A stretch of 64,000 nt of DNA from positions 1,268-65,267 of the forward strand of contig JACPFQ010000010.1 of assembly GCA_016182875.1 (NCBI GenBank), written 5' to 3'. A program made the position numbers and the translations under genes. Below, in pieces: positions 30,518-45,825 of this stretch. Source of the DNA: Candidatus Doudnabacteria bacterium (GTDB taxonomy: Bacteria > Patescibacteriota > Doudnabacteria > UBA920 > O2-02-FULL-48-8). How positions within the stretch are numbered: the stretch's first letter is position 1; each line of letters starts with the position of its first letter. The notes under the pieces are model-generated. The model was given only the letters and a program-made list of their open reading frames with translations. It made no database searches and was not told the DNA's origin.

Positions 30518-31792
30518 CTATTTAATTTTCCTCACCAGTCTCGACTCGTCTTTAGGCTTTTTATTCAAGACGAGGCGGACAATCCCCTTGTTGGCGTCGA
30601 CTTCGACCAAGTCTCCGTCCTTGAAAATCTTGGTCGCGAACTTAGTGCCGATGACGCAGGGTTTTTTCAGCTCTCTGGAAACAATTGCCGCATGGCAAAG
30701 CATGCCGCCTTCGTCCGTGACAATCGCGGAGGCTTTTTTAATTGCCGGTAACCATTGCGGGCGGGTCATGGAGGTAACAATAATTGATTTGTTCTTTACT
30801 GCTTTTATATTTTTAGCAGTCATCAAGATAACAACCTTTCCACTAGCTTTACCCGCTTGGGCAGTCGTCCCAGACAAAGTGTTGATTTTTGAAGAAATAT
30901 TTCCTTGCGGCCCTAACTCTTTCGCAGCGATTTTCTGTGCCTCTCTCCCGGAATACAGTAACCAGGTTTGATTCTTTAAAACTAAAACGTAAAAGCTTCT
31001 TCGCTTTTTTACTTCAACTTGGAGTAACTTCCAACTCCTCTTTACGCTTTGCAAGATTTCTTCAGGCCGATACCAGACCAGGTCTTTTTTTGGAATTTCG
31101 TTTTGTCTCACGATTTTTTCTAAAAATTTTTGGAATTTCGGAAAAGAATATTTAGTAGTTACTAATTCAGCAACTTCGTGCAAATAAAACCGCCATTCAA
31201 AATATTTTATTAATTCTTTAAACGCGGTCGAAGGCTTGAGCTTGTTTAACAATCTTAGCTTTTTCTCTACTAGCGCCTTATCCGGATGAAAAAACTCCTC
31301 AAGGTTGCTTGCGTTTATTACAGGATAAACAAGGGTAGCAAATAGCTCGTCACTTGTTCCATATCCAAATTTCAAAAGTTCTTTTTTCAACAGCAGCTCG
31401 AGCTCTGGCTGAGGTATGCAGTACGCCACTATCGCCCTTGCCTGGATATAAAGATTAAAATAATTTTTCAAAGATTCTATAATTTGATCTGGCTGATCTG
31501 GCGGTAACTGCTCGATGTGGTCAGTCAGCCTGATCAGTTGAGTTAATATACTGCAAGAACTCTTAAATAATCTTTTATATACTTTTGTTTTATAATCATT
31601 CTGGATAATTCGTAATTTTTTTGGGATTTCATTTGGTCCGAAATACATAACCGGCAGTTCGTGCTCCGCAACTATTAAAATCTCACCAATGCAATATTTG
31701 GTTCCAGATAAATTTGTGGCATACCCAAGAGTTTTGAGGTAACGCTCAAGCAAAGTTGCCTCCCGAGTAATCATTTTTTTCCAGTAGGTCAT
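30518..31792 (-). CDS. paralog 6: novel helical N-domain + C-terminal PEP-utilising phosphohistidine (swivel) domain
   Basis: C-terminus [28 protein letters not shown]...[11 protein letters not shown]. Confidence 0.8.
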   Translation of the reverse strand: MTYWKKMITREATLLERYLKTLGYATNLSGTKYCIGEILIVAEHELPVMYFGPNEIPKKLRIIQNDYKTKVYKRLFKSSCSILTQLIRLTDHIEQLPPDQPDQIIESLKNYFNLYIQARAIVAYCIPQPELELLLKKELLKFGYGTSDELFATLVYPVINASNLEEFFHPDKALVEKKLRLLNKLKPSTAFKELIKYFEWRFYLHEVAELVTTKYSFPKFQKFLEKIVRQNEIPKKDLVWYRPEEILQSVKRSWKLLQVEVKKRRSFYVLVLKNQTWLLYSGREAQKIAAKELGPQGNISSKINTLSGTTAQAGKASGKVVILMTAKNIKAVKNKSIIVTSMTRPQWLPAIKKASAIVTDEGGMLCHAAIVSRELKKPCVIGTKFATKIFKDGDLVEVDANKGIVRLVLNKKPKDESRLVRKIK

Positions 31793-32112
31793 AGTAACAA
31801 CTCTGCCGCTGTCCGAGCCTGTTTCTCTCCTTCACCAGTTAATTCCGCTTCCGCTCCCTCGCCTAGGGCCTGACCGTGCCTGAAAAAATAAGCATTAACT
31901 TCCCGGCCTTTAGGTTCTTCTTCTCTCGCCTCCTTAAATCTCGGCTCTCCCTCTCCCTCTCCAAATTTTCTTTCATTCATATATTAACCTTTCTTAATTA
32001 TTTTATCTTCCTCACAACCCCTCGATTCGCCCCTGTACCAGTCCGCCTCAGGCGAACAGTACAGGGCTTCGCTCGCTCTGTGCACTTTAGTACGGTCGTG
32101 TATTAAAGCCTG

Positions 32113-33375
32113 TTAATTTGCTCGTTTAAGTAATTTTACTATTCCCCGCTGCGCATCCACCTCGACCAAATCCCCTGTCTTAAATACTTGTGTCCCTATT
32201 TTGGTCCCTATAATACATGGGATTTTCATTTCCCGGGATACTATCGCTGCATGGGAAGTAATTCCACCTTCATCTGTCACAATGGCTTTAACTTTTTTCA
32301 AATATGGCACGGCTGCGGGCTGGGTTTCTGGAGTAATTAAGATCTCGCCTGATTTGATTCCTGAAAAATTATAGGCATCAGCAACGCGGGCTCGGCCAGT
32401 AACCCTACCTTTATTTGCAATTAACCCCGCAATTTTGGAAGTTCTACCGTTTAAATCCTGGATTGATTTTTTAAAGTCTTGAAGTTTGGGTCCAACAATA
32501 ATCTTAACTCCTTGAGACGCAAACATTAAACCGTAATCTTTCTGTCGCAATTTCAGAATTCTGCGATTAAACTTTCCGGAAATTAACTCTTCTGGGGTCA
32601 ATTGCCTGGCTGCTTCGTAACTTAATCCCTGAGCTTTTTTCATTAGCAAAGGTTTGAAATAATAGAAAAATTCACTAATTTTATACAGCCGCCAGTCACG
32701 GAAATGAATATATTCCTGCGCCATTGCAACTAATCGATCAATGCGAGGATTAATCTTTGTTTTTTGTGATTGCACGGCCTTAATTTGATTTTTCTTTGCT
32801 GATTTCCAATCAGCCTTGAATGTTTCGTAAGTCAACGGAGTTATGTCCATAACGTAAGAATTTATCCATGCATAATTTATGAATACCTTTTTAAATACTT
32901 CTGGGTTTGGCTTCTTAACTGCGCGCAAAGCTTGTTGGTATTTTTGGCGCATTAAGGGTTTCTTGCCAAGAGGAACTTTCTCAATTACCGGTTTGAGCTC
33001 TTCATTAATAACCAAATCAATCATAATCGGCAAATAGGTAGCTTGAAATGCCAAAGCCGCTTGATCGAATATCTGTTTGAGGTTTTGCTTGGTAGCATGT
33101 TTGGTATGCTTTGTGATGACGATAAGCTTTTCTGAATCACCTTTCATCTTTTTCAAGGCCCGATATGGCCAATCCGTCCCAAGTTTTTTTTTGATAGCTT
33201 GTAAAAGTAATTTAAGCTCTCGTTCTTCCACCCATAAACTACCCGAATGTCTAGCCCAATGTTTGAGATTGGGCAGACCAAAATAATCGCCGAATTCGCG
33301 TCGTAATGATTCCATAACCCAATAAACATACAAAATCGGATGATTACCGCGAGTAAAAAATCTTATCCATTTCAT
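32113..33375 (-). CDS. paralog 5: variable N-domain + PEP-utilising phosphohistidine domain
   Basis: C-terminus [28 protein letters not shown]...[11 protein letters not shown]. Confidence 0.8.
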   Translation of the reverse strand: MKWIRFFTRGNHPILYVYWVMESLRREFGDYFGLPNLKHWARHSGSLWVEERELKLLLQAIKKKLGTDWPYRALKKMKGDSEKLIVITKHTKHATKQNLKQIFDQAALAFQATYLPIMIDLVINEELKPVIEKVPLGKKPLMRQKYQQALRAVKKPNPEVFKKVFINYAWINSYVMDITPLTYETFKADWKSAKKNQIKAVQSQKTKINPRIDRLVAMAQEYIHFRDWRLYKISEFFYYFKPLLMKKAQGLSYEAARQLTPEELISGKFNRRILKLRQKDYGLMFASQGVKIIVGPKLQDFKKSIQDLNGRTSKIAGLIANKGRVTGRARVADAYNFSGIKSGEILITPETQPAAVPYLKKVKAIVTDEGGITSHAAIVSREMKIPCIIGTKIGTQVFKTGDLVEVDAQRGIVKLLKRAN

Positions 33376-33626
33376 TTTATTTTCCTCACAATCCCATTAT
33401 TCGCATCGACTTCCACCAAATCGCCGTCTTTTAATCTTTTATATTTACTATTCCTGTAAATCAAGCGGACTTTCGCGGTATCCTGTGTAATCCACTTTTG
33501 TTCTTCTTTCGTCTTGTAATACTTCTTGTTTGCGTAAAAATGACCGAAAATTTTAGCCTGTCCTTGTTTTCGATCAAAGTATATTTCCGCCAACTTATTA
33601 TTAACCATTGCAAAACACCACGGCAT
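33372..33626 (-). pseudogene. remnant of a further paralog (only the extreme C-terminal swivel-domain motif retained)
   Basis: Ends ...[20 protein letters not shown], identical in style to the paralog C-termini, and lacks the GG..HAAI core. Confidence 0.5.
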
Positions 33627-33638
33627 AGATATTTTTTA

Positions 33639-34055
33639 TTATTTTGTTAGATACTTATTCAAAAAATCACCTGGCAAAAGAATGGGAAACGACACGGCTC
33701 CCATCACCCTGGGCTGGATAAAATGCTTACGGTCTAAAGTTATAAAAAAATCGCAATTGGCTTTCATGGCCGCAGCAAGAATTACTGCATCAAATACATT
33801 GATTAATTTTTTAGCTTTTAAGATTGTTTTTTTATCTGGCTGGATTAAAACCGCATGCACAGAATCAAACAAAGCTAAAAAACTTTGAACTTTAACGGGA
33901 TATTTCTCGTTCAAATTCCTGGTAACTTCCTCGAAAACATCTGGCGAGCTGATTACCGGAAGCCTCTTATTTATGACTTGGCGAATAATTTCGGCTGACG
34001 CGCCTTGTTCAGAAAGACTCGCCGCTATCCAAACACTACTGTCTAAGAAAATCAT
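33639..34055 (-). CDS. vapC: PIN-domain toxin (VapC-like)
   Basis: Start MIFLDSSVWIAA plus conserved acidic residues; 138 aa, immediately downstream of the RHH gene. Confidence 0.7.
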   Translation of the reverse strand: MIFLDSSVWIAASLSEQGASAEIIRQVINKRLPVISSPDVFEEVTRNLNEKYPVKVQSFLALFDSVHAVLIQPDKKTILKAKKLINVFDAVILAAAMKANCDFFITLDRKHFIQPRVMGAVSFPILLPGDFLNKYLTK

Positions 34056-34057
34056 CT

Positions 34058-34330
34058 TTATTTAAAAAGATAAGGATAGCGTTCTTTTACCAATTCCGAT
34101 CGAATTCGCCTATAATCTTTTTCAATTTTTTTCCATAACCGGGCATCTTCTTTTTCGAGCTGAAGTAATTTTTTCTTTGGGATTTTTTTGCTTGCTTCTT
34201 CCAAATAACGGCGCAGTGCCGTGCGTAAAAGTTCTGAACGGGTCATATTCTGCTTTTGGGCTATTTTTTCCGATTCCCGCAGCATTTGAGGCGGTAGGGA
34301 AATAGTGACTAACGACGTATTACGCTTCAT
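34058..34330 (-). CDS. vapB: ribbon-helix-helix antitoxin (CopG/VapB-like)
   Basis: 90 aa with an RHH-like N-terminus (VTISLPPQMLRESEKIAQ); 3-nt spacing to the PIN gene. Confidence 0.6.
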   Translation of the reverse strand: MKRNTSLVTISLPPQMLRESEKIAQKQNMTRSELLRTALRRYLEEASKKIPKKKLLQLEKEDARLWKKIEKDYRRIRSELVKERYPYLFK

Positions 34331-34424: not shown

Positions 34425-35873
34425 TCATCTGCCAACTTTTCTGACAATCCCCTTACTAGCATCGACCTCGACCAAATCCCCATCTTTGAGGACTTTGGTT
34501 GCTATTTTGGTGCCGACGATGCAAGGAACGCCCAGCTCGCGGGAAACTACCGCCGCATGAGACATTAGTCCGCCGACATCAGTGACAATTGCTTTAGCCT
34601 TGCGCATAGCAACTATATAGTCGGGTGAGGTCATGGGGGCGACCAAGATTTCTCCGGGTTTCATGTATTGGGCAAATTTCGGTGAATGCAGAATCCTAGT
34701 CCGCCCGCTAACCTTCTGTCCTGAATTAAAAGCCACTATTCCTTGGACTTCTTTGCCAGCATTTATTTCTTTCTTCGATTCCAAAGCCTTGAGGAAATCT
34801 TTTACTTTTTTGCCGTAAAAAAATCTGTAATCCTTGGGTGTTACCAAAATCATCGTCGAATTTTTCCTGTGCTTAAGTACGCGAGGACTGACCTTGGCCC
34901 CGGTTTGGAATAACCTTAACCACTCGGCGCAATCATAATACATCAACTGGTCAATGCTTAGGCCAAAAACCGGGCTGGCGAATTTATTAAACCTATCAAT
35001 GACATTGTGGGCCCGCCAGCTGGTGGCCTTGCGGTGGTCCTGCCACCAGATAGAAAAAGAAATATTACGCGCAGCGGCGACCAAGCTTTTTGGAACGTGA
35101 TATTTTTTTATAACTTGTCTTTTTCTTTTGGCGATCTCGCGGCGCGATGCCAAAATGTTTTGTATTTTTTCCTTCAGCTGCTGTTTGGAAAGCCTGCTCA
35201 CTTGCCTTAAAAAATATGTGTCGGGAAGGATTTGCGCTGTATAATAGCTATTTTCCACCCAATACCATTTGGAGGCGTAAACTTTCAATTTGGCGCGCAA
35301 GCCCTTTTTATTTTTAGCCGCTAAGGCAGTTTGGAGCAATTCCAGTTCGCTTTGTTGATGGAAGCTTGGTTTTGGAGAGGCCATAAGTATGCCAACTGTT
35401 TCTTCCATCTCGCTTGCTGGAACAAGGCCGCGAAGTTTCCTGCTTAAATATTCAGGTGAGGCAAAATTAGCCAGTTCTTGAACTAAAGCATAAACCCAAA
35501 GTTGAATCAAATAACGGTAAAATTTTTCAACGTAAGGCCTAAGCTGCTCAATATTTTTAAAGTTAGTGACATGCGATATCTCTCTTTTAAATTTTCTAAG
35601 GTTAAGCACATTGTCCCAGTACTTTTTCCACAAAATTTTCATTTTCCCAGTGGGAATAATCCAGCGATTCAGCGCGACCTCACCCCTTTTTTGCATCTCT
35701 GCTTTCTCCCAATAATACGCCATCTTGTCGTGGCCATAAATCCCGACATAAGTGGGCCAGGGCGCTTTGAATTTCATGCCGCTTGTGGCATTGGCCACTA
35801 TCCAAAACGACGGATACAAAAGCCTCCCATCTATTGGGCCCCACTGGTCAATTTCTTTTTTATGGTTAAGCAT
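34425..35873 (-). CDS. paralog 4: variable N-domain + PEP-utilising phosphohistidine domain
   Basis: C-terminus AIVTDVGGLMSHAAVVSRELGVPCIVGT...[11 protein letters not shown]. Confidence 0.8.
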   Translation of the reverse strand: MLNHKKEIDQWGPIDGRLLYPSFWIVANATSGMKFKAPWPTYVGIYGHDKMAYYWEKAEMQKRGEVALNRWIIPTGKMKILWKKYWDNVLNLRKFKREISHVTNFKNIEQLRPYVEKFYRYLIQLWVYALVQELANFASPEYLSRKLRGLVPASEMEETVGILMASPKPSFHQQSELELLQTALAAKNKKGLRAKLKVYASKWYWVENSYYTAQILPDTYFLRQVSRLSKQQLKEKIQNILASRREIAKRKRQVIKKYHVPKSLVAAARNISFSIWWQDHRKATSWRAHNVIDRFNKFASPVFGLSIDQLMYYDCAEWLRLFQTGAKVSPRVLKHRKNSTMILVTPKDYRFFYGKKVKDFLKALESKKEINAGKEVQGIVAFNSGQKVSGRTRILHSPKFAQYMKPGEILVAPMTSPDYIVAMRKAKAIVTDVGGLMSHAAVVSRELGVPCIVGTKIATKVLKDGDLVEVDASKGIVRKVGR

Positions 35874-35876
35874 GTG

Positions 35877-36743
35877 TTATTTACCCAGTCTAGCTTTTAA
35901 CCATTCCGTAATTTGTTGAGAAAATTGCGGCCATTCTGACTCTAGCATCAGCAAGTGCCCTGCTTTCATTTCGAGATAATCTCCTCTTAAAAACCTCGCT
36001 AGTTCCTGGCACTGCTGCGGGGAAACACGGTTGTCATCCGAAGCCCCAACAACTAAAATAGGACATTTTATTTTTTCCGGATTGATTGAAGGAGGTTTGC
36101 TATAAGCTTCAAAACGAGCCTGGTGTGACTCAAATCCCAACATTGGCTTGTATTTTTCATCATAGGCTGCTTCAAAGTCAGACGGAACCCGATCGCCAAA
36201 CCAGCTTAAAAAACTCGCTTTATCTCTTTTTATCATATCTCCCCTTGCAATTAATTCTTGAACTTTTGCTTCTTCTTCGGGAGTTGGCGCTTTCATCGGA
36301 AACTGAGATGGGAGTCCGGGTGTAAGCAAAATCAATGCGGCTGGCTTTTGGTCAGCGGCTTGCTCCATTGCAGTCAAGCCGCCGGCGCTACGGCCTACCA
36401 ATACTTGTTGATTGTAATTTAAGCCTTGCTGTGTTAAATCTTCACGCGCCCTGCGGATATCTTCGTTAAAATCCACCATGCTTCTACCTGCGAATTCTGC
36501 ATTAGGAAGTTCGCCCAGCCGCCCTTTAAGATTAACTGACATTGAATCAAAGCCATTGCGCCCGAAACTTTCCAAAACGGGCAGGCCACTTTTTGCAGTA
36601 AGACCTGATCCGGGAATGAAAATGGCAGTCTCCAGATAAAGTTTGGGCTCTGCTGGCAAAAATTCTGCTCTTAATCCGCCTACAATGATTTCTCTCGTAG
36701 GAATTTTGGGAGCATCAAATCGCCCGGAATCTTCTATGCTCAT
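35877..36743 (-). CDS. alpha/beta-fold hydrolase
   Basis: GRSAGG nucleophile elbow (GxSxG) with downstream D/H; 288 aa. Confidence 0.65.
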   Translation of the reverse strand: MSIEDSGRFDAPKIPTREIIVGGLRAEFLPAEPKLYLETAIFIPGSGLTAKSGLPVLESFGRNGFDSMSVNLKGRLGELPNAEFAGRSMVDFNEDIRRAREDLTQQGLNYNQQVLVGRSAGGLTAMEQAADQKPAALILLTPGLPSQFPMKAPTPEEEAKVQELIARGDMIKRDKASFLSWFGDRVPSDFEAAYDEKYKPMLGFESHQARFEAYSKPPSINPEKIKCPILVVGASDDNRVSPQQCQELARFLRGDYLEMKAGHLLMLESEWPQFSQQITEWLKARLGK

Positions 36744-37735
36744 TCTTTCTTTTCAAACCTACTCTTTGCTACTTCAGCTAACTCTCTAACTTTTTGCCAG
36801 TCCAAATAAACTCTTTTGCCTTTAAATAATTTGGCCCGCTCAGGGTCTGTAAACTCAAACTCCGCTTTGGTGTCTTTGTCAAAATCATCTAAGCTTCGCG
36901 GATCGCCCATTCTGGTGTCGCGGGAAAGTTTGATGCGAAACGCTGTGGCCTGTTTGGTGAACCCGCCGATTTCGTCCACGTCATCAAAGCCGACTTTCCG
37001 CTCCCCGGTTTGCGGATCTTCTACGACCAAAGCCTGTTTATACAAAGATTCCGCAAACAGTCCGCTGCCGACTATGGGAATCGCTTTTGACTCACCGCCC
37101 TTCACGCCTCTTCTGGAAAGCTCAATTGCGTGCATCAACTCATTGGCTTCGTTTTCGGCCAAAGGACGGGCAATATCTTCATTGGCTAGCGCTTCTCGCA
37201 ATCCTACTATTTGCGCCTTTTCCCTATTTGCGGCTCGAAATTCCGCGTCAGATTTGAATCTTTCCTGGTCCTCCGGCGACAACTCTAAAACCAAACGATT
37301 GAGCTTAGTGTTGATCAAATCTTTGTATTGCTTCAACACCGGATTTAGGCCAGCGCCAGCATAATCAACGCCTTTGCCGCGCCTTGCTCCTTTTACTTTG
37401 CCGGTTTTGCCTTTGACCGGTGAGGCGTCTTCTCGCTCACCGAACTTTTCACTCCCGGCCAATATATCTTCTCCGGTTTCACCATGTCTGGGCTCATCTC
37501 CTCCCCGAGGATGAACCAAAGTCACTTCTTCGGGATAATTAGCCGCCCCATACTCTTTTGCTCGGGACTTGCCCACAGGCGTTAAGTCCGTAGGGTCATC
37601 AAACTTTTGCCGGCTGCCATCGGCAAAGGTGATATCCATCGGCCCGCCGAACCTACTGCCGTGGCGCGTAAGGTCGATGTAGGTCGTCGCGATAAACTGT
37701 TTCTCCTCCTCAAGATTGCGCATTTCTTCATTCAT
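36740..37735 (-). CDS. hypothetical protein, possible histidine-phosphatase-like (RHG motif near N-terminus), charged/low-complexity middle
   Basis: LTRHGSRFGGP motif; otherwise unrecognised. Confidence 0.35.
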   Translation of the reverse strand: MNEEMRNLEEEKQFIATTYIDLTRHGSRFGGPMDITFADGSRQKFDDPTDLTPVGKSRAKEYGAANYPEEVTLVHPRGGDEPRHGETGEDILAGSEKFGEREDASPVKGKTGKVKGARRGKGVDYAGAGLNPVLKQYKDLINTKLNRLVLELSPEDQERFKSDAEFRAANREKAQIVGLREALANEDIARPLAENEANELMHAIELSRRGVKGGESKAIPIVGSGLFAESLYKQALVVEDPQTGERKVGFDDVDEIGGFTKQATAFRIKLSRDTRMGDPRSLDDFDKDTKAEFEFTDPERAKLFKGKRVYLDWQKVRELAEVAKSRFEKKE

Positions 37736-38322
37736 AGTTTTTGTAACTCCTTTTTTAATTGTTCAACATTTTTATAAATTAGAATTTTCATTGCCAATTG
37801 CTCGGCACCCTCGATTCTGTCCGGACGATCATCGATATACAAAGCTTCGCTTCCGGAAACGCCGGCTTGTTGGAGTGCATATTCGTAAATTTTCACATCT
37901 GGCTTGCGGATATGCAGATAACTGGATACAGCTTTAATAGTAAAAATTTCACCCCAATGATACTGCTGCCAAAAATAATCAAACCATTCTTTGGGATTAT
38001 TGGAAATAACGCCCAGGGTGAAGCGGCTCTTGAGAACCGCCAAGAATCCCAGCAGTTCTCTGTTCGGGGAAAAATTTTTAAGAATCAATTTCTTTAAATC
38101 CTCGACGTCCAGCGCTTGCTTGAAGTCTTCCGCAGTTTTTTGAAAGTACTCCTGCTCGCTAATATTGCCCAAAGTGAAGTCCTTCCACCACACTCCATCA
38201 TGAGCTGAAGCGTAAAGCAAGCCAGGTTTAATCCCATGAGCCGCCTCGTATTCCTTAATCCCGGCTGTAAAACCTTCTCTCACTAAAACATTACCGGAAT
38301 CAAAAAAAATTGCCTTGATCAT
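37732..38322 (-). CDS. HAD-superfamily hydrolase (subfamily IA-like)
   Basis: Motif I IFFDSGNVL and motif IV YIDDRPD. Confidence 0.65.
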   Translation of the reverse strand: MIKAIFFDSGNVLVREGFTAGIKEYEAAHGIKPGLLYASAHDGVWWKDFTLGNISEQEYFQKTAEDFKQALDVEDLKKLILKNFSPNRELLGFLAVLKSRFTLGVISNNPKEWFDYFWQQYHWGEIFTIKAVSSYLHIRKPDVKIYEYALQQAGVSGSEALYIDDRPDRIEGAEQLAMKILIYKNVEQLKKELQKL

Positions 38323-39815
38323 TTTGCTCTTTCCAGAATCCGGACGATTCCTTTTTGCGCATCCACTTCCAGCAAGTCATCGTCGTGGATAATCCGGGTT
38401 CCATTTTGGGTGGCGATGACGCACGGAACTCCCAATTCGCGGGAGACAATCGCGGCATGCGAAGACAAGCCTCCCTGGTCCGCGACAATTGCGACCGCTT
38501 TTTCCATGGCCGGCACAAAATCCGGAGTGGTGAACTGCGCCACCAGGATGTCGCCCCGCTTGACCTTGCCTATTTCATGTTTGTCCAGGCAGACCCTTGC
38601 TCGACCCCGGATCATGCCGCCCAAACACGCCATCCGTCCGTGAATCTCTTCGATTTGCTCAACTTTGACAAAATACTTTTTTTCTAATTTTTTAATTTCG
38701 GCAGGATCAGTAATCAACTTGGTTTCGGCATTCCGCACTACCATGGCGTAATCTTTAAATCTCCTTTGCATCTCAGCGCTATTGGGCAGCGGCTTGCCCC
38801 GGAGTGCGCCAAACATTTCCGGAGTGGAGACTTCCATAATCCAGTCAGGGTTGAATTTGGCTCGTCGGGCGATCTCGGCGTACATGAAGCTTGCGCCATA
38901 ATCGGCGTTGAAAAACGCTTCTACGCGGCGGTTGCGGACGTAGGAATGGAGTTTTGCCTGGCCAATGATCTTTTGGAAATCTTTTTTCGGCCTAATTTTC
39001 TCAATGGCGTCTTTGTAATCGTCCCCGACTTTCTTCTCGGAAGCGAAGTAGATTAGGTCATCAATCGACTGGCCTGCGGAAATTTGCCTTTTTATCTCTT
39101 TGAGCCTGTCAATTATGTCCTTGTAAGAGTAGGGCTTGCTCGTGGCTAGGCCGCGGTTGATGTAGGCAAATTTATCCAGATGCTTTTGAATTTTTTGCTT
39201 AAACTTCGACGGCAAGCTGTTTAAATCAGCTTTGGCTTTGAAAAGTTCTTTGGCCAACAGCGTCAGCTTCCACCGTTCTTCGGCCACGTCGGTCATTTCT
39301 TTGGGATCGGTAAAGACCAATACATAATGGCGAAAATTTGGATTATCGCCTTTGATGCAATCAAGCAATTTTTCCTCAATTGCTTTTTCAAAATATTCAT
39401 CCAACGGGTATTGGGCATACCAAGGGCAGGCCAACTCTCGATACTGCTCCAGCAAATCTTTCAAAACGCCTGCCATGTGTCGGTTGGTTTTGCTCTGCCA
39501 ATCTGTCTTTTTGAGCTCAAAACCCCGATTGTAAAGCTTCTCCGACTTTTTCAACTCGCGCACGCAGTATCTTTCAAACCAGCCGTCATTTTTCTTGGGG
39601 TGCCCGGTTATTTCCGCTTCAAAGGGATTATATTCCTCCGCCGGCCAGTAGATCATGTGGTGCAGGTAAGCTCTGTTGGCCAAAACCGTTCTGATTTGAG
39701 CCTTCGCCGCGTTTTCCGGATTGAACGAAGAGTTAATCATGAAGCGCAAAAAGATCGGAAGCTTGCCCGACGGCTTGATCCTCCATTTGCCCGAATACAT
39801 TACTGCCCCGGCCAT
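38319..39815 (-). CDS. paralog 3: variable N-domain + PEP-utilising phosphohistidine domain
   Basis: C-terminus [28 protein letters not shown]...DDLLEVDAQKG. Confidence 0.8.
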   Translation of the reverse strand: MAGAVMYSGKWRIKPSGKLPIFLRFMINSSFNPENAAKAQIRTVLANRAYLHHMIYWPAEEYNPFEAEITGHPKKNDGWFERYCVRELKKSEKLYNRGFELKKTDWQSKTNRHMAGVLKDLLEQYRELACPWYAQYPLDEYFEKAIEEKLLDCIKGDNPNFRHYVLVFTDPKEMTDVAEERWKLTLLAKELFKAKADLNSLPSKFKQKIQKHLDKFAYINRGLATSKPYSYKDIIDRLKEIKRQISAGQSIDDLIYFASEKKVGDDYKDAIEKIRPKKDFQKIIGQAKLHSYVRNRRVEAFFNADYGASFMYAEIARRAKFNPDWIMEVSTPEMFGALRGKPLPNSAEMQRRFKDYAMVVRNAETKLITDPAEIKKLEKKYFVKVEQIEEIHGRMACLGGMIRGRARVCLDKHEIGKVKRGDILVAQFTTPDFVPAMEKAVAIVADQGGLSSHAAIVSRELGVPCVIATQNGTRIIHDDDLLEVDAQKGIVRILERAK

Positions 39816-39818
39816 AAT

Positions 39819-40397
39819 TTAGAATTTAAATTCTTTTGAATGCATTAAAAAATATTTCAATTCTTCGATAAAAGGTTCTGTAAGCCTCATCTTTTTCTCG
39901 TTATAAAGCTGCCAGACTTTTCTTAAATCAAATGCTTTAAAATTCTTAATTTCCTGCCGGTTTGGTTTGACTTGTCCGTCATGTTTCCCAATGTACCAAT
40001 ATACCATTATTCCGCCGATTGATAAACCAGGCATCGGAATAATCTTTATCAGTTTAAGAGGAACCTGAATGCCTAACTCTTCCTTCAACTCCCTCAAAGC
40101 ATCGGCCAAAATCTGTTTTTTTGTTCGTGCGCCCGACCTTACAAATCCGGAGCATGCTGATTGCCAATGAAGCGGCTGGATGTCTTTCGTTCGGCTTCTT
40201 TGCTGGAGCCAAAATTTTCCCTGCGAGTTTTTTAGCCAGATGTGGGCTGAGCGGCGCATCAATTTCCGGTTCTGCAAGAATTTTTTTCTCGTAGCCCTGC
40301 CAATGACCTTATTGCGCAAATTCACGATATCGTGCAGCTCACCCATCGGGTCAGAGCTGTCTTTGAGATTAATCAGTTTTACTCTCTTTAATTTCAT
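39819..40397 (-). CDS. Nudix hydrolase
   Basis: Nudix box SGFVRSGARTKKQILADALRELKEELGI (Gx5Ex7REUxEExGU). Confidence 0.65.
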   Translation of the reverse strand: MKLKRVKLINLKDSSDPMGELHDIVNLRNKVIGRATRKKFLQNRKLMRRSAHIWLKNSQGKFWLQQRSRTKDIQPLHWQSACSGFVRSGARTKKQILADALRELKEELGIQVPLKLIKIIPMPGLSIGGIMVYWYIGKHDGQVKPNRQEIKNFKAFDLRKVWQLYNEKKMRLTEPFIEELKYFLMHSKEFKF

Positions 40398-41007
40398 TTT
40401 CTAGAAGCTGATTTAAATCGCCGATTTCAAAAAACTGATGCTCGGTCCACTTAAGACTGGAATCATTGCTATTTATGTTATAAACCCGGGTTTTAAAATT
40501 TGCGCCCTCATCCTGTAAATGCTTTGCGGCATCCAGGAAAAACCGGCAATTTTCACGGCTGTTATCCGTATAAACTATTGTATCATAACCGGCAACAAGC
40601 TTCTTAACCAGAATGTCTTTAAGCATCGCTTCTGTTTTGATATTCGTGTTCCCGTAGTCAAAAGTGCTATGGACTTCTCTGATGTAATCGCGCGGGTCAA
40701 TGCCATACTTTCTTACGATCTGCTCAGCCCGCCAATCCATCTGTTCGGGGTTGCCAGTCGTGAATACCGCATTGTTTTTGGTCCAACCCAAAACTTCCTC
40801 GAAATGTTCGGCTAGATCAAGATCAAACAACCCCTTCCGGTACGGCCGTTCGTAAGCGTACTCATAATCTCTGGGGCTAATGGTCTTTAGATCGAATCCG
40901 AGCGACTCAATATAAGCGTCAAAGTTTGGGAAGCCGCTTTTTCGGCTGTCCCATCGCTCCAGAAACAAAGTGTCCGCCAAATCCCAAAGGTACAAAGTCT
41001 TACTCAT
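40369..41007 (-). CDS. HAD-like hydrolase / nucleotidase-like (weak)
   Basis: N-terminal LYLWDLADTLF, a DxDxT-like motif. Confidence 0.35.
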   Translation of the reverse strand: MSKTLYLWDLADTLFLERWDSRKSGFPNFDAYIESLGFDLKTISPRDYEYAYERPYRKGLFDLDLAEHFEEVLGWTKNNAVFTTGNPEQMDWRAEQIVRKYGIDPRDYIREVHSTFDYGNTNIKTEAMLKDILVKKLVAGYDTIVYTDNSRENCRFFLDAAKHLQDEGANFKTRVYNINSNDSSLKWTEHQFFEIGDLNQLLENEIKESKTD

Positions 41008-41013
41008 TGCAAA

Positions 41014-42495
41014 TTATTTTATTTTCCTCACCCACCCATGATTGGCATTGACCTCGACTATGTCGCCGTCTTTCAAAACTTCGGTGGCGATCTTGGTGCC
41101 GATGATGCAGGGGATGCCCAGCTCGCGGCTGACAATCGCGGCGTGCGAAGTGATGCCTCCTTCGTTGGTGACGATTGCCGCGGCTTTCTTCATGGCCACC
41201 ACGTAATCCGGCCGGGTCATGACCGCCACCAAAATATCGCCGGCCCTGACTTTGCCCACTTCCGAAGAAGATTTAAGCACCTTCACCGGCCCAATGGCCT
41301 TGCCCGTGGATGCCGAAAGCCCGCGGAAGTCATCGACTTCTTCCTGTTTTCTGCGGCCGAACATGGCAGATTTAAGAGCCTCAACGTCGCGGCCGGTGAA
41401 AAATTTGGCATACTGCCTCGTGGCAATCACCGCCGAACCTTTCATGCGCTCCTGCAAAATTTTTCGGCTCGGATTTCCGGACTTAATAATGTCCGGTATT
41501 TCCGAGGGTCCGGCGTACTTTAATTCATCTAAAGTATAGTGTGCCTTTTTGGCGATGGCAGACAGAATTTGACAGCCCATGTGGATATTCAGATAGGTAG
41601 CGCGCTTGCGCTGGTCCTGCCATGCCGTAAAGTCATCGGAAATTTGCAGCAGGGTCCGCAAAAAAACCGAAAGCTTGTACTGCCTAAATAATTTTTGCTT
41701 CGCTATTTTATTTCTTGCCGGTGTTTCTTCAATCTGCCGCAGCTCTTCTGCCAAATTCTTTTTGCTTTGCTTCCAGGCTTTAATTTCCTGTTCAAACTCG
41801 GCAACGCTGAGCACGTGGGCGCGAATGTAATTATTACTGGTCCAGAAAAATTTCTTCTGATGATCTTTGAGCGAATCTTTGGACTTGCCCAAAATTATTT
41901 TAAGCAGGCTGATCTCAGCTTCACTTATGAAAGATTGTCTGGTGGGAGCGGAAGCGACGGCGAAAATCTTGGCCAAATCCGATGTTTTGAGATTTCTGCC
42001 ATATTTTGTTACTTCTTTTTTCAGCATGTCGGCCACCAGCTCATCCGTGCCCAAAGCAAAGTGGTCGATGATTGCCGAGGAAGTGAAGCGCTTGACTCCA
42101 GCGATATGATAGCGCTCCCAAGCTTGCGCCAAGGAGGCTTTGGATAACTTTTTCAAATCAGCCTTTTGCAGTTTCTTAAACAGTCTTTCAAAAATTTGTT
42201 CGTCCTTCTTCCATAGGCGCATAAGCTTGCGGGAAAAGTCGGGGTCTTTTTTGGCAAGCTTAAGAATTACGCGAACGCCGCGCTTTATATCTTTCTGGTC
42301 CAGGTACCAGTCAACTTTTCCCCGGTCAAAAAAGCAGACGCGCACATCCGCCTCGGTTCCAGCCGGCTTGCGGGGTTCTTTTTTCGGCTCTGCCTCCCAA
42401 ATAAACCCGATAAACATTGGTGAGCCATCAAACCGCTGATGGTACCATTCTCGGTTCTTCAATTGGCCTAAATTATAGCTTTTTAATAGTTTCAT
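41014..42495 (-). CDS. paralog 2: variable N-domain + PEP-utilising phosphohistidine domain
   Basis: C-terminus [28 protein letters not shown]...[11 protein letters not shown]. Confidence 0.8.
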
Positions 42496-43940
42496 TTCTT
42501 AGCTTTCGTTAATATTTTAACCATTCCTAAATTTGCATCAACTTCCACCAAGTCCCCAGTTTTTAGAACTTTCGTGGCGACCTTAGTCCCGATTATGCAG
42601 GGAATTCCAAGTTCCCGCGAGACAATCGCCGCATGCGATGTAATCCCACCCTCATCTGTAATAATAGCCGAGGCTTTATGCATAAACGGCACAAAGTCCG
42701 GCCGGGTCATGGTCGTGACCAGTATTCTGCCGTCGATAAATTTTTCCTTATGAGGATTGATGACGACGCAGACCTGGCCCTTGAAGCGGCGGACAGGTGC
42801 GGAGGCAACAAAGCCCCAAAACGACTGAACCTGCCTGGTGCGGAAGCGATCAAAAATTGCCTGGGCCTGCTTGCCAACATAAATTTTTTCGTCCAATCCT
42901 GTTTTTGTCAAACTCGTGACGATCACCGAAAACCTTCTGCGCTGTTTGGGAATTCTCGAATCCAGCTTAACTTTTTTTATTAATAAATTTACAGCTTCTT
43001 CTGGGGTATAATAATTAAGCAAGTCTTTGGGAACTTTTGTTCTTCTGATGATTTCATCCAAAAGGGAATCAACATAATAAATCATATGCAGAGCGCCGAA
43101 CTTTCTTTCGTCAATCCAGCGGCTCATGATTCGCAAAAGTTCAAATGTCTTGGCCATTCTTGGAGTCAAACTAAATTCTGCCAAAAGCTGAGTTTGATGC
43201 TTTTTTAGATTGAGGGCTTTACTTTGCAAGCCCCTTATCTCTCGTTGAACCTGTTCTCGATTTTTTGACTTCAATAATATTTTGGCCTGATTCTGGAAAT
43301 AGTTCTTATCCAATGCTTTGTGGCCAGTATAGTTGTTCTGCGACCAATGATATTTCTCGGCAAAGGCTTTGAAGTTTGGTTTTCTCTTGAGGCACTCTTG
43401 GAGAAACTCCAGCCTTTCCCGTTCAATAAATGAAAGCATGGGATATGTTGAAAGAATCAAACTGGCTTCCGCCGGAACGTTTTGATCCAGTAATTCTTGA
43501 TCAGAATAAATGTCAGCAGACTCGGGAATAATAGAATGAGTGAAATGGAGGACGGATAAATCATAAACCTCTCGATAGACAGCGGCCAATTTTCTATCAG
43601 AAAATTTTTTTCTTCCCGTGACCGCCCATTCTCCTCTCTGGATCAGCTGTTTCTGGACAGCTTTGTATTTTTTGTACCAAAGCAGAACTTTGCGCGGATT
43701 GCGCAGGTACAGATTTAGAATTTTATGGAACTGCCTGAGCTTTTCTTGCTCTGAAGTTTTTTCCAGAACTAGGTCACTTTTATAAAGAGCCAGGCAGATG
43801 CTCAAAAATTTCTGCTTGTAAACGTGGCTTTGCATGATGAAACATCGCCAAGCACAGATAGTCAACTGATAGTTGCTGGGCATGTCCTCACTCCACCAGG
43901 TGTCTTTTTTGATTTTCCCGATAATTTGTTCAAAGATCAT
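42492..43940 (-). CDS. paralog 1: variable N-domain + PEP-utilising phosphohistidine domain; ATGA-coupled to the upstream ATP-grasp gene
   Basis: C-terminus [28 protein letters not shown]...[11 protein letters not shown]. Start at MIFEQ overlaps the stop of 43937..44872. Confidence 0.75.
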
Positions 43941-44872
43941 AACGTAGTGATTGGCCGAGATTGAGTGATGTAAAATTTGCCGCGAACAAAAGCCCATTCT
44001 ATGTCTTGAGGTTTTTTGTAGTGTTTCTCAATGCCTTTGCAAATTTTTGCCAGCTCCACGATTTGCTTGCCGGTTAGCTTCTGCCTTCCGCCGGCTTTGG
44101 CTGATAATTTTTTGTGCAAGTTTTTATTTCCTGCCCGCACGATCATCATGCTTTGCTCCGAGACATTTATATCCAGAATCGAAAGGTCGTCTTTGTGGAC
44201 CACGTAAGTATCCGGGGTTACTGAACCGGAAACTATGGCTTCGCCCAAACCAAACCCGGCCTCAATCACCATTTGATTGCGGTCTTTAGTGACCGGGTGC
44301 ACGGTGAAGCAAATGCCGGAAATTTCCGACTGGATCATGGCCTGCACGACCACGGCGACGGAAACCGGCTTTTTATGCAGTTTCTTTTCGAAGCGATAGA
44401 AAATCGCGCGCGGCGTGAACAGCGAGCTCCAGCACTTTTGCACGTTTTTCAAAAGGTCTTTTTCGGTCGTGTTCAAATACGTTTCAAGCTGGCCGGCCCA
44501 AGCGGCGGTCGAGCTATCTTCGGCCGTGGCCGAGGAGCGGACAGCTACAAACTTGCTCTTAAGCCGCCGAAAGTGACTTTTAACCTCTTCGGCCACATCT
44601 TTGGGCATTTTAGCTTTCTCAATCAACCCTCGAATATCTTCCGATGCTTCCTCGACCGAATTTATATCCTTATGGTTGACCTTCTTCAAAGCCGCCTCGA
44701 CTTCGGCGTCCAAATCCGTCTCCTCCAGGAACTGGTCAAATGCGGAGGCAACAACCACAAAACCCGGCGGAACCGTAATACCCGCCTGAGTCATTTCCCC
44801 AAGCGAAGCGCCTTTGCCCCCGGCGATTGACACATCTTTTTTTGATAGTTGCCTGAATATTTTGACGAACAT
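43937..44872 (-). CDS. stand-alone PPDK_N-type ATP-grasp nucleotide-binding domain protein (PEP synthase / rifampin phosphotransferase N-domain-like)
   Basis: [10 protein letters not shown]...VPPGFVV...[11 protein letters not shown]...DIEWAF...ITQSRP matches the PEP/pyruvate-binding ATP-grasp signature; 311 aa. Confidence 0.8.
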
Positions 44873-45004: not shown

Positions 45005-45427
45005 TCAAATCTTGAAAAATTCGCGGGCCTGAAGCTCATCATCTTTCATCTGGTCTATAAGCGCTTCTTTGGTTTCGAACTTCTGGTTATCGCGTATCTT
45101 TTTGATAATCTCGACTTCCAGTTCACAGCCATAAATCTCCTGGCTAAAATCAAGGATATGAACCTCGACCAAGGTTTTGGTTTCGTCGAAGGTTTCCGCC
45201 TTGCCTATAAAAATCAGCGCAGGGAGGCCAGTGTTTTTGAAAAGCTTGGCATGCGGCAGCAGCTTGCGCAAAAACAGCGGCGGGAGTTTGCCGCCGGTGA
45301 TATTTTTTACTAACCCAAGATAGATGCCCTCTGGTAACTCTATTTTGGCATCCAAATTCGCCGTTGGGTAGCTAAGTCGCTTACCACGGCCGAGGTGTTT
45401 GATGACTTTACCTGAAATACTTGTCAT
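45005..45427 (-). CDS. riboflavin kinase
   Basis: Contains KVIKHLGRGKRLSYPTANLD, a flavokinase motif. Confidence 0.7.
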   Translation of the reverse strand: MTSISGKVIKHLGRGKRLSYPTANLDAKIELPEGIYLGLVKNITGGKLPPLFLRKLLPHAKLFKNTGLPALIFIGKAETFDETKTLVEVHILDFSQEIYGCELEVEIIKKIRDNQKFETKEALIDQMKDDELQAREFFKI

Positions 45428-45428
45428 G

Positions 45429-45824
45429 TTATTTGCTGTTCGAACGAAGCTGAGAACTTTTATAAATACTCGGCCTAAAAGCCTTCAGCCGAACCACTTT
45501 CGCGATTTTTTTGAGCTGATTCATGCTCACATAAGGCATCTGGTCATAACCAAGCGCAATTACATCCGGCTTCTCTTTACGAATATGCGGCCAGGGATTT
45601 TTTAGTCCACCCAAAACCACTTTATCTATAAACGGTAATTTTTTAAGCGCGGCGGTTCTTGTTTTTTCGCTCTGTGAAGTTTTATGCCTCTTAACCTTTC
45701 TAACGTTTGCGTCTCTGGCAACCGAAACCACCAGATAGTCACCAAGCTTTTTCGCCTGCTTCAAAAAATCTACATGCCCCGGGTGCAGTAAATCAAATAC
45801 TCCAAAGACCATGACTTTTTTCAT
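45429..45824 (-). CDS. cytidylyl/adenylyl-transferase-like (HxGH) protein, probable FMN adenylyltransferase partner of riboflavin kinase
   Basis: Contains VFGVFDLLHPGHVDFL, a (T/H)xGH nucleotidyltransferase motif. Adjacent to, and 2 nt from, the riboflavin kinase gene. Confidence 0.5.
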   Translation of the reverse strand: MKKVMVFGVFDLLHPGHVDFLKQAKKLGDYLVVSVARDANVRKVKRHKTSQSEKTRTAALKKLPFIDKVVLGGLKNPWPHIRKEKPDVIALGYDQMPYVSMNQLKKIAKVVRLKAFRPSIYKSSQLRSNSK

Positions 45825-45825
45825 A
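45752..45825. repeat. 74-bp direct repeat copy 1 (5' end of nucleotidyltransferase gene)
   Basis: Matches 46635-46708 at about 70 of 74 positions. Confidence 0.8.

Follow-up and report, generated by a model that had tools for sequence, protein, structure and literature searches.

The question raised by this locus is why genes for hydrolases stand between tandem copies of a phosphotransferase-like gene. The stretch analysed, here called the window, comprises 64,000 nucleotides from the metagenome-assembled genome of Candidatus Doudnabacteria bacterium, a member of the CPR/Patescibacteria (assembly GCA_016182875.1, contig JACPFQ010000010.1, positions 1,268 to 65,267), and its own numbering is used throughout. 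In an earlier, sequence-only reading, five hydrolase-type genes had been described as interleaved with phosphotransferase paralogs; all five were found at the coordinates given, on the minus strand, between the swivel-domain paralogs P482, P498 and P493. The paralogs are H-type subunits, lacking an ATP-grasp domain, of two-component small-molecule dikinases similar to RPH. The five genes would encode dedicated accessory hydrolases of a multi-subunit dikinase system of the RPH/PpsAB type, a reading to which a probability of about 0.5 is given from sequence comparison and from analogy with characterised systems. In other genomes, too, the genes stand side by side, and some are found fused, which indicates that the hydrolases are associated with the paralogs beyond chance.

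Organisation of the array

Nearly all genes of the window are on the minus strand, and the array spans 44,872 down to 30,518. It contains one stand-alone ATP-grasp subunit, six H-type subunits and five hydrolase genes. In the direction of transcription the order is ATP-grasp, P501, P493, [HADL212, Nudix], P498, [HAD196, RHG331, α/β-hydrolase] and P482, after which come an RHH/PIN gene pair, an 84-aa relic open reading frame (ORF), P420, a 63-aa relic ORF and P424. The intact dikinase and hydrolase genes are the following.

43937-44872, minus strand: GRASP311, stand-alone ATP-grasp (I-type) dikinase subunit (Pfam PPDK_N, 6.8e-102)
42492-43940, minus strand: P501, H-type subunit of 482 aa, or 501 aa if started at 43997 (PEP-utilizers at the C-terminus, 3.2e-26)
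41014-42495, minus strand: P493, H-type subunit, the usual neighbour of the HADL212 family (PEP-utilizers, 9e-26)
40369-41007, minus strand: HADL212, uncharacterised 212-aa family with a HAD-like motif pattern (motifs, conservation in arrays)
39819-40397, minus strand: NUD192, Nudix hydrolase similar to YfcD/DR0079 (Pfam NUDIX, 3.5e-11)
38319-39815, minus strand: P498, the most conserved H-type subunit (orthologs, AlphaFold2 model, fold match to RPH)
37732-38322, minus strand: HAD196, HAD-IA hydrolase (Pfam Hydrolase, 2.2e-12; HAD_2, 5e-12)
36740-37735, minus strand: RHG331, divergent protein of the histidine-phosphatase superfamily (AlphaFold2 model and Foldseek, RHG motif)
35877-36743, minus strand: ABH288, α/β-fold serine hydrolase (Pfam Abhydrolase_6, 1.8e-10)
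34425-35873, minus strand: P482, H-type subunit 3' of ABH288 (PEP-utilizers, 3e-27)
32113-33375, minus strand: P420, shorter H-type subunit (PEP-utilizers, 2.3e-25)
30518-31792, minus strand: P424, shorter H-type subunit and final gene of the array (PEP-utilizers, 6.1e-25)

The genes had been described as tightly spaced, with ATGA overlaps and spacers of 0-4 nt. The tight spacing and the overlaps were recovered; the spacers ranged from -29 to +6 nt. The values were +6 nt for P493 to HADL212, -29 nt for HADL212 to NUD192, and +3 nt for both NUD192 to P498 and ABH288 to P482, and the three junctions P498 to HAD196, HAD196 to RHG331 and RHG331 to ABH288 were each -4 nt, being the three ATGA overlaps in the span. 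The proposed one-for-one interleaving did not hold: the two blocks contain two and three hydrolases, P501 and P493 are adjacent with no hydrolase between them, and P420 and P424 have none, save a 63-aa relic of a histidine phosphatase.

In its longest form, the ORF of P501 reaches 61 nt into the ATP-grasp gene. A start at the methionine at 43940 gives an ATGA overlap with the stop of GRASP311 and is the one used by gene callers on identical contigs. The NCBI call for P498 (P0044) has 445 aa and is shorter than the 498-aa ORF that is kept in orthologs. Contigs identical to the window were present in samples of the SRR121134xx series, and RHG331 is 100% identical to NCBI HYV13_04005.

A scan of 29.5-49 kb returned 31 promoter-like sites, no better than the 30.2 expected from shuffled sequences. 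Terminator-like sites in the same region were only slightly in excess (31, compared with 23.0 in shuffles, sd 4.9). The scan thus speaks neither for a single operon nor against one. Scans for tRNA genes and Rfam families found only three tRNAs, far from the cluster.

Linkage of paralogs and hydrolases in other genomes

Loci for comparison were retrieved by two routes, L007-L009 through homologs of RHG331 and L010-L012 and L013-L016 through orthologs of P498, and were annotated with local hidden Markov models (HMMs). More than 110 orthologs of P498 were found across Patescibacteria at 57-75% identity, after which identity fell sharply to 36%. A gene of the RHG331 family adjoined the P498 ortholog in 11 of 11 loci, the window included, and was either of a close type (56-63% identity) or of a distant type (~25%). 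It was also found that a HAD196 ortholog follows P498 in 10 of the 11 loci, with an ATGA overlap in seven of the ten. Orthologs of HADL212, at 42-58% identity, lay inside the arrays of L007, L009, L011, L012, L013 and L015, and the family was array-embedded in every context seen. The HADL gene was adjoined in six of seven loci by a member of OG0, a broad cluster that contains P482 and P493; in L015 one gene stood between them. The order HADL–Nudix–P498–HAD–RHG of the window was repeated in L013, the one other genome in which a relative of NUD192 was seen.

The co-occurrence of hydrolases with RPH-like genes, which the sequence-only reading had proposed to look for in other genomes, recurred by both retrieval routes. 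Two conserved units could be distinguished, P498 with HAD196 and a histidine phosphatase, and a P493-type paralog with HADL212. RHG331, HAD196 and HADL212 were co-inherited with specific paralogs across Patescibacteria. The link was further evidenced by three fusion proteins: P0102 joins a P498 ortholog to HAD196, with the HAD directly after the swivel domain, P0177 joins a paralog to HADL, and P0186 joins HADL to the N-terminal domain of a paralog. Co-inheritance and fusions together bear out the suggestion that the hydrolases are functionally tied to the paralogs.

It had also been considered that the hydrolases might be housekeeping genes that occur in the same order in relatives without the paralogs. 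They were found instead to be rare, array-bound families. RHG331 gave 43 matches in 5.8e9 proteins and HADL212 gave 33 representatives in 1.84e9 proteins. ABH288 had only two relatives (55% and 39% identity) in 5.8 billion proteins, from two other genomes and both beside PEP-utilizers paralogs, and none in a search of metagenome contigs. No homologs of NUD192 or ABH288 were present in the first six loci, L007-L012.

Hydrolases were also found in arrays without P498 orthologs, namely His_Phos_1 proteins (L027, L021, L024), an HD-domain protein (L024) and MBL-fold proteins (L025, L095), with members of the His_Phos_1 family recognised by BLAST similarity in L015 and L058. Three lineages of histidine phosphatase recurred in arrays: RHG331/A6, X1, and that of L024 7564-8190.

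Two more families without a Pfam match were recurrently embedded in arrays. One comprises L008 6941-7906, L026 13858-14535 and L031 11050-11814 (24-31% identity), the other L007 13353-14189 and L041 7341-8171 (43% identity).

The dikinase subunits

In GRASP311 the PPDK_N domain covers residues 15-310, with no swivel or other domain, and this was the only ATP-grasp HMM match among the ORFs of the window. Orthologs at 59-63% identity occurred once per array in L007, L010 and L012. In the six paralogs the PEP-utilizers swivel domain is confined to the C-terminus and no ATP-grasp domain is present, a point missed in the sequence-only reading; all six have to rely on the one PPDK_N gene, that at 43937-44872. 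The phosphoenolpyruvate (PEP)/pyruvate TIM barrel (PEP-utilizers_C) gave no Pfam match in any of the seven dikinase proteins. All six paralogs have kept the catalytic histidine motif, GGxx[S/C]HAA[IV][IV][SA]R, intact and no more than ~50 residues from the C-terminus (H453 in P498). The C-terminal regions of the paralogs, swivel domain included, are ~40-57% identical, and the N-terminal domains of ~310-400 residues are 20-24% identical where they can be aligned. Orthologs of P493 were found at 40-59% identity, and those of P482 at 33-35% in L007, L010 and L012.

P498 was the only paralog modelled (AlphaFold2, mean pLDDT 93.5). Its best fold match among solved structures was the RPH of Listeria (5fbu, E 1.8e-13, TMq 0.61), over ~580 columns that include the RIF-binding and swivel domains. 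At the sequence level, the N-terminal ~330 residues had no detectable match to any solved structure. From their weak paralogy to P498, the other five paralogs are predicted to have the same arrangement of a RIF-binding-like domain followed by a swivel domain. The invariant residues of P498 are rich in Arg and Lys (K14, R24, R48, R294, R297, R352), a hint that the ligand is anionic rather than hydrophobic.

As the paralogs have neither an ATP-grasp domain nor a TIM barrel, they are not PEP synthases, pyruvate phosphate dikinases (PPDKs) or complete RPHs. An identity as PEP synthase or PPDK was rejected on account of the missing barrel, the position of the swivel domain at the extreme C-terminus, and scores far under the cut-offs (NCBIfam PEP_synth, 100-130 bits for the paralogs and 330 for GRASP311 vs a cut-off of 740). 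The NCBIfam PRK08296 models match the C-terminal ~120 residues only. An identity as a rifamycin-inactivating rph was rejected in the same way, the domains being split across genes and the scores lying far under the cut-off of 999 of the rph equivalog NF041857 (~52-67 bits for the paralogs, 296 bits for GRASP311). GRASP311 matches the ATP-grasp part of RPH in that model at 7e-88, and P493 matches residues 709-864 of the RPH structure 5fbs. That GRASP311 and P501 are one frameshifted RPH-like gene was also discarded: in other arrays the grasp gene, at 311-336 aa, likewise stands alone, and its position varies.

Identity and active sites of the hydrolases

Four of the family assignments made from the sequence alone were upheld, those of ABH288, HAD196, NUD192 and RHG331. 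The membership of HADL212 in the HAD superfamily is statistically unproven.

ABH288 matched Abhydrolase_6 at 42.3 bits (cut-off 26.3). Its Ser-Asp-His triad appears in canonical order (G117-R-S119-A-G, SDD235 with D236/237, and H263), an assignment made by motif order rather than from a structure. NUD192 matched Pfam NUDIX at 43.7 bits (cut-off 21.1), NCBIfam YfcD at 2.6e-15, which is below the cut-off of that model, and the structure 2fkb at 3.4e-8. The REUxEExGU part of the Nudix box is present as RELKEELGI at 102-110, and the upstream Gx5E part, read from the sequence, is imperfect (S...K).

HAD196 matched Pfam Hydrolase at 48.2 bits (cut-off 26.4) and, as a profile against the Protein Data Bank (PDB), 3cnh at 2e-25 and YihX at 4e-20. 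It has an insert of the length of a C1 cap, and S107, K140 and D163-D164 of the later motifs are conserved. Motif I reads D8-S-G-N-V and lacks the aspartate at +2 (Asp+2) that serves as general acid/base; orthologs have G, A or N at this position, with those in L010 and L011, which retain DxDxV, as the sole exceptions.

RHG331 had no match in Pfam, NCBIfam or the sequences of the PDB. Its AlphaFold2 model (pLDDT 95.3) retrieved with Foldseek only structures of the histidine-phosphatase superfamily, with histidine acid phosphatases leading (top match E 3e-6, prob 1.0, TM 0.45, identity 10-13%). The motif R24-H25-G26-x-R28 and the residues R77 and R83 are invariant in a 35-sequence alignment. 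The canonical second histidine (HD/HG) is missing, with an invariant S224 in its place, and a new invariant pair, R83-H84, lies in an inserted loop. An alignment by hhalign with relatives of the 'TRHAER...THG' type from L010-L012 (prob 97.6%, E 3.8e-12) placed G-S224-G against T-H-G. From this pattern, H84 may compensate for the lost second histidine, which would amount to the relocation of a catalytic residue. The relatives of the THG type are encoded at L010 12101-13162, L011 11931-12989 and L012 11508-12518, and that of L012 shows a weak match to Pfam His_Phos_1. In the model of RHG331 a helical insert of ~80 residues lies over the core. No signal peptide can be recognised in its sequence, and the protein is cytoplasmic.

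HADL212 likewise had no match in Pfam, NCBIfam or the sequences of the PDB. In 18 sequences its motifs D9-x-A-x-T13, T83-T84-G85, K124 and D148 are fully or almost fully conserved, and only A, G, S or C occurs at +2, never Asp. When its profile was compared with the PDB, HAD hydrolases came out on top, but weakly (E=0.16). By hhalign it was colinear with the HAD196 family through motifs I-IV, yet with a probability of 0.4% only. A Pfam scan of HADL212 and 17 relatives (E<=5) returned noise only, with one relative matching Hydrolase at E 0.14. In the ortholog at L012 9330-9983, an in-frame stop directly follows motif I (MSKILYLWDLADT*FLEKWN…); this is a pseudogene or a sequencing error, and the gene caller began at the next methionine.

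Both HAD196 and HADL212 carry inserts of 70-95 residues between motifs I and II. In the HAD superfamily a C1-type cap is the mark of an enzyme for small molecules, and phosphatases acting on proteins have no cap. The cap-sized inserts of the two HAD-type proteins, like the helical one of RHG331, speak for small molecules as substrates and against proteins.

Arrays in CPR bacteria and DPANN archaea

A profile search of genome contigs with the P498 alignment returned, among the matches listed, arrays in Nealsonbacteria, Saccharibacteria, Paceibacterota and Magasanikbacteria of the candidate phyla radiation (CPR) and, in DPANN, in Woesearchaeota, Iainarchaeum and a single-cell genome of Nanoarchaeota. 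The array of Nealsonbacteria has ten paralogs and one grasp gene. Between three and ten grasp-less swivel paralogs per array were counted in CPR-type bins (L024, L026, L027, L031, L041) and in DPANN (L025, L029, L033, L037). A lone PPDK_N-only gene was visible wherever a CPR or DPANN locus extended to the grasp gene, and such a single gene accompanied 5-10 paralogs in L007, L010, L012, L013, L016, L024, L026, L027, L029 and L041.

The same ratio was observed within single proteins. A Woesearchaeota contig (L023 389-11674, JAFGGS010000004.1) encodes one ORF of 3,761 aa with a single ATP-grasp domain followed by eight binding-plus-swivel modules, and the histidine motif is intact in all eight. 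Smaller versions have a grasp domain with four modules (L043 5565-11624 and L052 7928-13912, the histidine motif being recognisable in three of four in each) or with two (L042 384-4319), and in L020 2077-5397 three modules are fused without a grasp domain. These fusions strongly support the reading that one grasp domain would serve many modules.

The orthogroup of N-terminal domains that includes P482 and P493 (OG0) spans bacteria and archaea, which suggests inter-domain transfer. Several array-bearing bins labelled Gammaproteobacteria, Pseudomonadales or Methanosarcinales may be mis-binned. In L010 15904-20323 and L012 13607-17998 the stand-alone PPDK_N gene is directly followed by genes similar to those of type IV secretion (PrgI, TraC-like, DUF87/TraG P-loop ATPase). 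In the searchable literature, no account of such arrays of PEP-utilizer or swivel paralogs was found for CPR or DPANN.

Comparison with known systems

In PpsAB, CreHI and HpeHI, a separate ATP-grasp subunit presents ATP to the partner, whose histidine is pyrophosphorylated; the γ-phosphate is then lost and the β-phosphate is transferred to the hydroxyl of a small molecule (PMC12167813). HAD phosphatase partners have been described for AcvAB of Sphingobium (AcvF) and for PpsAB of Thauera, where the partner is the HAD-like δ subunit of phenylphosphate carboxylase (10.1101/2022.04.28.489975), and in the Hpe pathway dephosphorylation takes place at a downstream step (PMC12167813). The array resembles these two-component dikinases (PpsAB, CreHI, HpeHI, AcvAB) in having a separate ATP-grasp subunit, a subunit with a RIF-binding-like domain and a C-terminal swivel histidine, and a hydrolase of the HAD superfamily in the same cluster. 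It differs in stoichiometry, which is 1:1 in those systems and one ATP-grasp to six H subunits in the window, with up to ten elsewhere. It also differs in setting, since those systems belong to aromatic degraders, whereas the organisms here are CPR and DPANN symbionts, and no carboxylase, P450 or other aromatic-catabolic gene is found near the array. The partners are different too: a histidine phosphatase, a Nudix protein, an α/β-hydrolase and a new HAD-like family are added here, and the HADs lack Asp+2.

RPH (5fbu/5hv1) is the best structural match of P498 and would share the presumed conversion of ATP to AMP + Pi, but it is a single three-domain chain, its identity to P498 is 14-15%, and nothing points to a rifamycin substrate. 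With PEP synthase and PPDK, the array shares the PPDK_N and PEP-utilizers domains (the swivel domain is 50-60% identical to that of archaeal PEP synthase); unlike them, the window proteins have no TIM barrel, carry the swivel domain at the C-terminus rather than centrally, and are split into subunits. RHG331 shares the fold, the RHGxR motif and additional invariant Arg residues with branch 2 of the histidine phosphatases (the histidine acid phosphatases of Francisella and Legionella, prostatic acid phosphatase, phytases), from which it departs by an identity of 10-13%, by Ser224 in place of the C-terminal His, by R83-H84 and by the lack of a Pfam match.

Couplings of this kind have been found in other settings. 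In PFK-2/FBPase-2 a kinase is fused to a histidine-phosphatase domain, and glucan-water dikinase (GWD), which uses grasp and swivel-histidine chemistry, works with SEX4/LSF2 in phosphorylation followed by dephosphorylation. The array is similar to both in the genetic or physical coupling of a phosphatase to a kinase or dikinase. The kinase fold of PFK-2 and the substrate domains of GWD (carbohydrate-binding modules) are unrelated to those seen here, and the window holds no evidence for a signalling metabolite or a glucan.

Proposed mechanism

By homology with RPH, PpsAB, HpeHI and AcvAB, GRASP311 would present ATP to the swivel histidine of a docked H subunit, giving a pyrophosphorylated histidine and AMP and then phosphohistidine and Pi. 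The swivel domain would swing back and phosphorylate the hydroxyl of a small molecule held in the binding domain of the same subunit, so that one ATP-binding subunit could serve six acceptor specificities. From adjacency and fusions, HAD196 and RHG331 would be the partners of P498, HADL212 (with Nudix in some genomes) that of the P493 type, and ABH288 that of P482. Each hydrolase would work on the metabolite that its partner phosphorylates, or on a direct derivative of it, and would most probably take the phosphate off again, or else another ester or pyrophosphate group. Phosphorylation would then serve as a transient handle for activation or trapping, as in PpsAB with phenylphosphate carboxylase δ and AcvAB with AcvF. 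The earlier proposal of paired modules that phosphorylate and dephosphorylate is thus supported in principle by these two precedents, though not in the form of one hydrolase per paralog.

Several observations weigh against this reading. If a kinase is fused to a phosphatase that acts on the kinase's product, the pair would burn ATP in a futile cycle unless another step intervenes, and, unlike the Pps, Cre, Hpe and Acv pathways, the cluster has no annotated carboxylase, oxygenase or other transforming enzyme. Simple phosphatase chemistry is not assured either, given the Asp+2 missing from HAD196 and from all HADL212 relatives and the second histidine missing from RHG331. These three proteins may therefore not be ordinary phosphomonoesterases, and aryl, enol or acyl phosphates, or other compounds with a good leaving group, may be their preferred substrates. 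The unproven HAD membership of HADL212 is a further weakness. The counts of adjacency come from loci picked by homology to RHG331 or P498 rather than from an unbiased genome survey, and, as many of these loci are from related Patescibacteria, conserved synteny could by itself account for some of the adjacency. Against synteny as the only cause stand the gene fusions and the histidine phosphatases embedded in arrays of distant lineages.

Alternative explanations

Because no transforming enzyme stands between kinase and phosphatase, a fused pair acting on one group would be futile, and three functional alternatives were retained. An unlikely one, which would escape the futile cycle by placing the hydrolases first, is that they release a free hydroxyl compound from conjugates of host origin, be these linked to a nucleotide, esterified or wrongly phosphorylated, and that the matching H subunit then re-phosphorylates this compound irreversibly, with ATP going to AMP + Pi, at a useful position. 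The diversity of chemistries (Nudix, Ser-esterase, HAD and histidine phosphatase here, HD and MBL elsewhere) would fit such unpacking better than a single dephosphorylation. CPR and DPANN organisms depend on scavenged metabolites, and the arrays were found in both groups; the riboflavin kinase and FMN-adenylyltransferase-like genes, which lie beside the array in the window and inside it in L008, would also agree with salvage. No transporter or identifiable pathway enzyme ties the cluster to a salvage route, however, the phosphatase comes after the kinase in the characterised precedents, and the gene order P498, HAD, RHG indicates no direction. Decidedly unlikely is a parallel detoxification island, in which each RPH-like module and each hydrolase would independently inactivate a separate xenobiotic or antibiotic coming from a host or neighbour, and their co-location would reflect a shared role and regulation rather than consecutive steps. 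The closest solved fold is indeed that of an antibiotic kinase, RPH, and rph-like genes are listed in a survey of the CPR resistome (PMC8651080). The composition of the arrays is variable, the distal end is decaying, and resistance-type folds occur in other arrays (an APH-like kinase in L031, a weakly matching ANT-like nucleotidyltransferase in L024, MBL-fold proteins in L025 and L095, and α/β-hydrolases). P498, HAD196 and RHG331, kept at 50-75% identity and in fixed order across several CPR classes, look like core metabolism instead; the covalent fusions of paralogs to HAD-type proteins imply coupled action; HAD, histidine phosphatase and Nudix proteins are not classical resistance enzymes; and the invariant Arg and Lys residues of P498 would suit an anionic rather than a hydrophobic ligand.

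SixA and PGAM5 are phosphohistidine-protein phosphatases of the histidine-phosphatase superfamily, and PSRP/PDRP control PEP synthase and PPDK. By analogy, RHG331, the HAD-type proteins or both could discharge the swivel phosphohistidine (or an adjacent Ser/Thr) and so reset or gate the H subunits; in an extreme version, the Asp+2-less HAD would itself be a His-to-Asp phospho-acceptor. This regulatory role appears improbable. Membership of phosphohistidine-protein phosphatases in the superfamily, the three histidine-phosphatase lineages that recur in arrays, the loss of the HAD general acid, which would suit an activated donor such as phosphohistidine, and the HAD set directly behind the swivel domain in P0102 are all in its favour. 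It is at odds with the cap-type inserts of HAD196 and HADL212, with the helical insert over the core of RHG331, which is unlike the minimal SixA, and with the canonical DxDxV kept by the HAD196 orthologs of L010 and L011. Chance or syntenic co-location, with unrelated hydrolases in a variable region between tandemly duplicated paralogs, is highly improbable. It would be compatible with the lack of ABH288 and NUD192 homologs in L007-L012 and with the toxin-antitoxin insertion and gene relics of the region. The adjacency is nevertheless reciprocal, being found through RHG331 as well as through P498, the hydrolase families are extremely rare outside arrays, and the three independent fusions largely refute this explanation. 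Two further ideas were rejected. Operation in reverse, to harvest phosphate for ATP, was considered thermodynamically unlikely with ordinary phosphoesters and would leave the phosphatases unexplained, and a role in anti-phage defence was dropped because PADLOC models match none of the ten proteins scanned.

The accessory-hydrolase reading can be extended, tentatively and with the odds against it, to a phosphorylation platform of ultra-small CPR and DPANN symbionts built on one ATP-grasp subunit and many acceptor modules. The one ATP subunit would charge 5-10 interchangeable histidine carriers, each capturing a different scavenged metabolite by irreversible ATP-to-AMP phosphorylation, and co-evolved phosphatases (the histidine-phosphatase lineage with a relocated His and the Asp+2-less HAD type) would release or re-route the phosphate. 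Such cytoplasmic capture and salvage would replace missing biosynthesis.

Distal end and flanks of the array

The part of the array beyond P482 shows decay, with the GC content going down to 0.39-0.42, and contains the following further features.

34058-34330 and 33639-34055, minus strand: RHH antitoxin and PIN toxin, respectively, inserted in the array (Pfam RHH_1 and PIN on identical contigs)
33372-33626, minus strand: s84, an 84-aa ORF and relic of a seventh paralog (BLAST to paralog C-termini)
31789-31980, minus strand: 63-aa relic of a branch-1 histidine phosphatase (signature YFFRHGQA…LTGEGEKQA)

The recognisable part of s84 is the last ~22 aa of the swivel domain only; it ends as the last swivel strand and shares 85-90% identity over ~20 aa with paralog C-termini in L009, L024 and L037. 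Apparently, a seventh paralog was destroyed where the toxin-antitoxin pair now sits. The best sigma-70-like match of the region (11/12) is at 34389-34361, just upstream of the RHH/PIN pair. The 63-aa relic lies in the 320-nt gap between P420 and P424 and consists of the N-terminus of a branch-1 histidine phosphatase, then a stop. Its signature fits the array-embedded family X1, which is intact in L027, L015, L058 and L021 (the member at L027 3319-4383 matches His_Phos_1 at 5.4e-6), and by this sequence resemblance it is identified as a truncated sixth hydrolase. Just upstream, another frame ends in '…GANRGVVRKIK*', a further relic of a swivel C-terminus.

Other neighbours of the cluster are a riboflavin kinase, a CTP-transferase-like gene, Pro_dh, an aminotransferase and an IMPase-like gene. 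The riboflavin kinase (Flavokinase, 5e-30) and a small cytidylyltransferase-like, FAD-synthetase-like gene occupy 45005-45824 on the minus strand, immediately upstream of the ATP-grasp gene, and homologs of the flavin genes (47-51% identity) are embedded in the paralog array of L008 (12696-13121 and 16384-16779). Their proximity could reflect a link to flavins or mere synteny. Also upstream, at 45821-46627 on the minus strand, is a protein of the proline-dehydrogenase family (Pro_dh, 4.9e-26), and just downstream of the array, at 27443-29743 on the minus strand, a 766-aa MASE1-GGDEF-EAL c-di-GMP protein; to meet either of them in a small CPR genome is somewhat surprising.

Biological meaning

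In the window, about 14 kb of a tiny genome are devoted to one ATP-grasp subunit, six carriers and five hydrolases, and relatives invest more, with up to ten carriers or an eight-module protein of 3,761 aa. The conservation of P498 at 57-75% identity in several CPR classes, always accompanied by a gene of the histidine-phosphatase family, suggests an important function. Annotation labels such as 'PEP synthase', 'PEP-utilizing enzyme' and 'hypothetical protein' mask the system and could inflate claims of gluconeogenic capacity. With this system, the two-component dikinases for small molecules extend from 1:1 pairs in aromatic degraders to a combinatorial, one-to-many form with co-evolved hydrolase partners. 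Two uncharacterised hydrolase families, the RHG331 type and HADL212, gain a biochemical context, and P498, HAD196 and RHG331 make up a testable set for substrate discovery. CPR bacteria and DPANN archaea, with their minimal genomes, account for a large share of microbial diversity.

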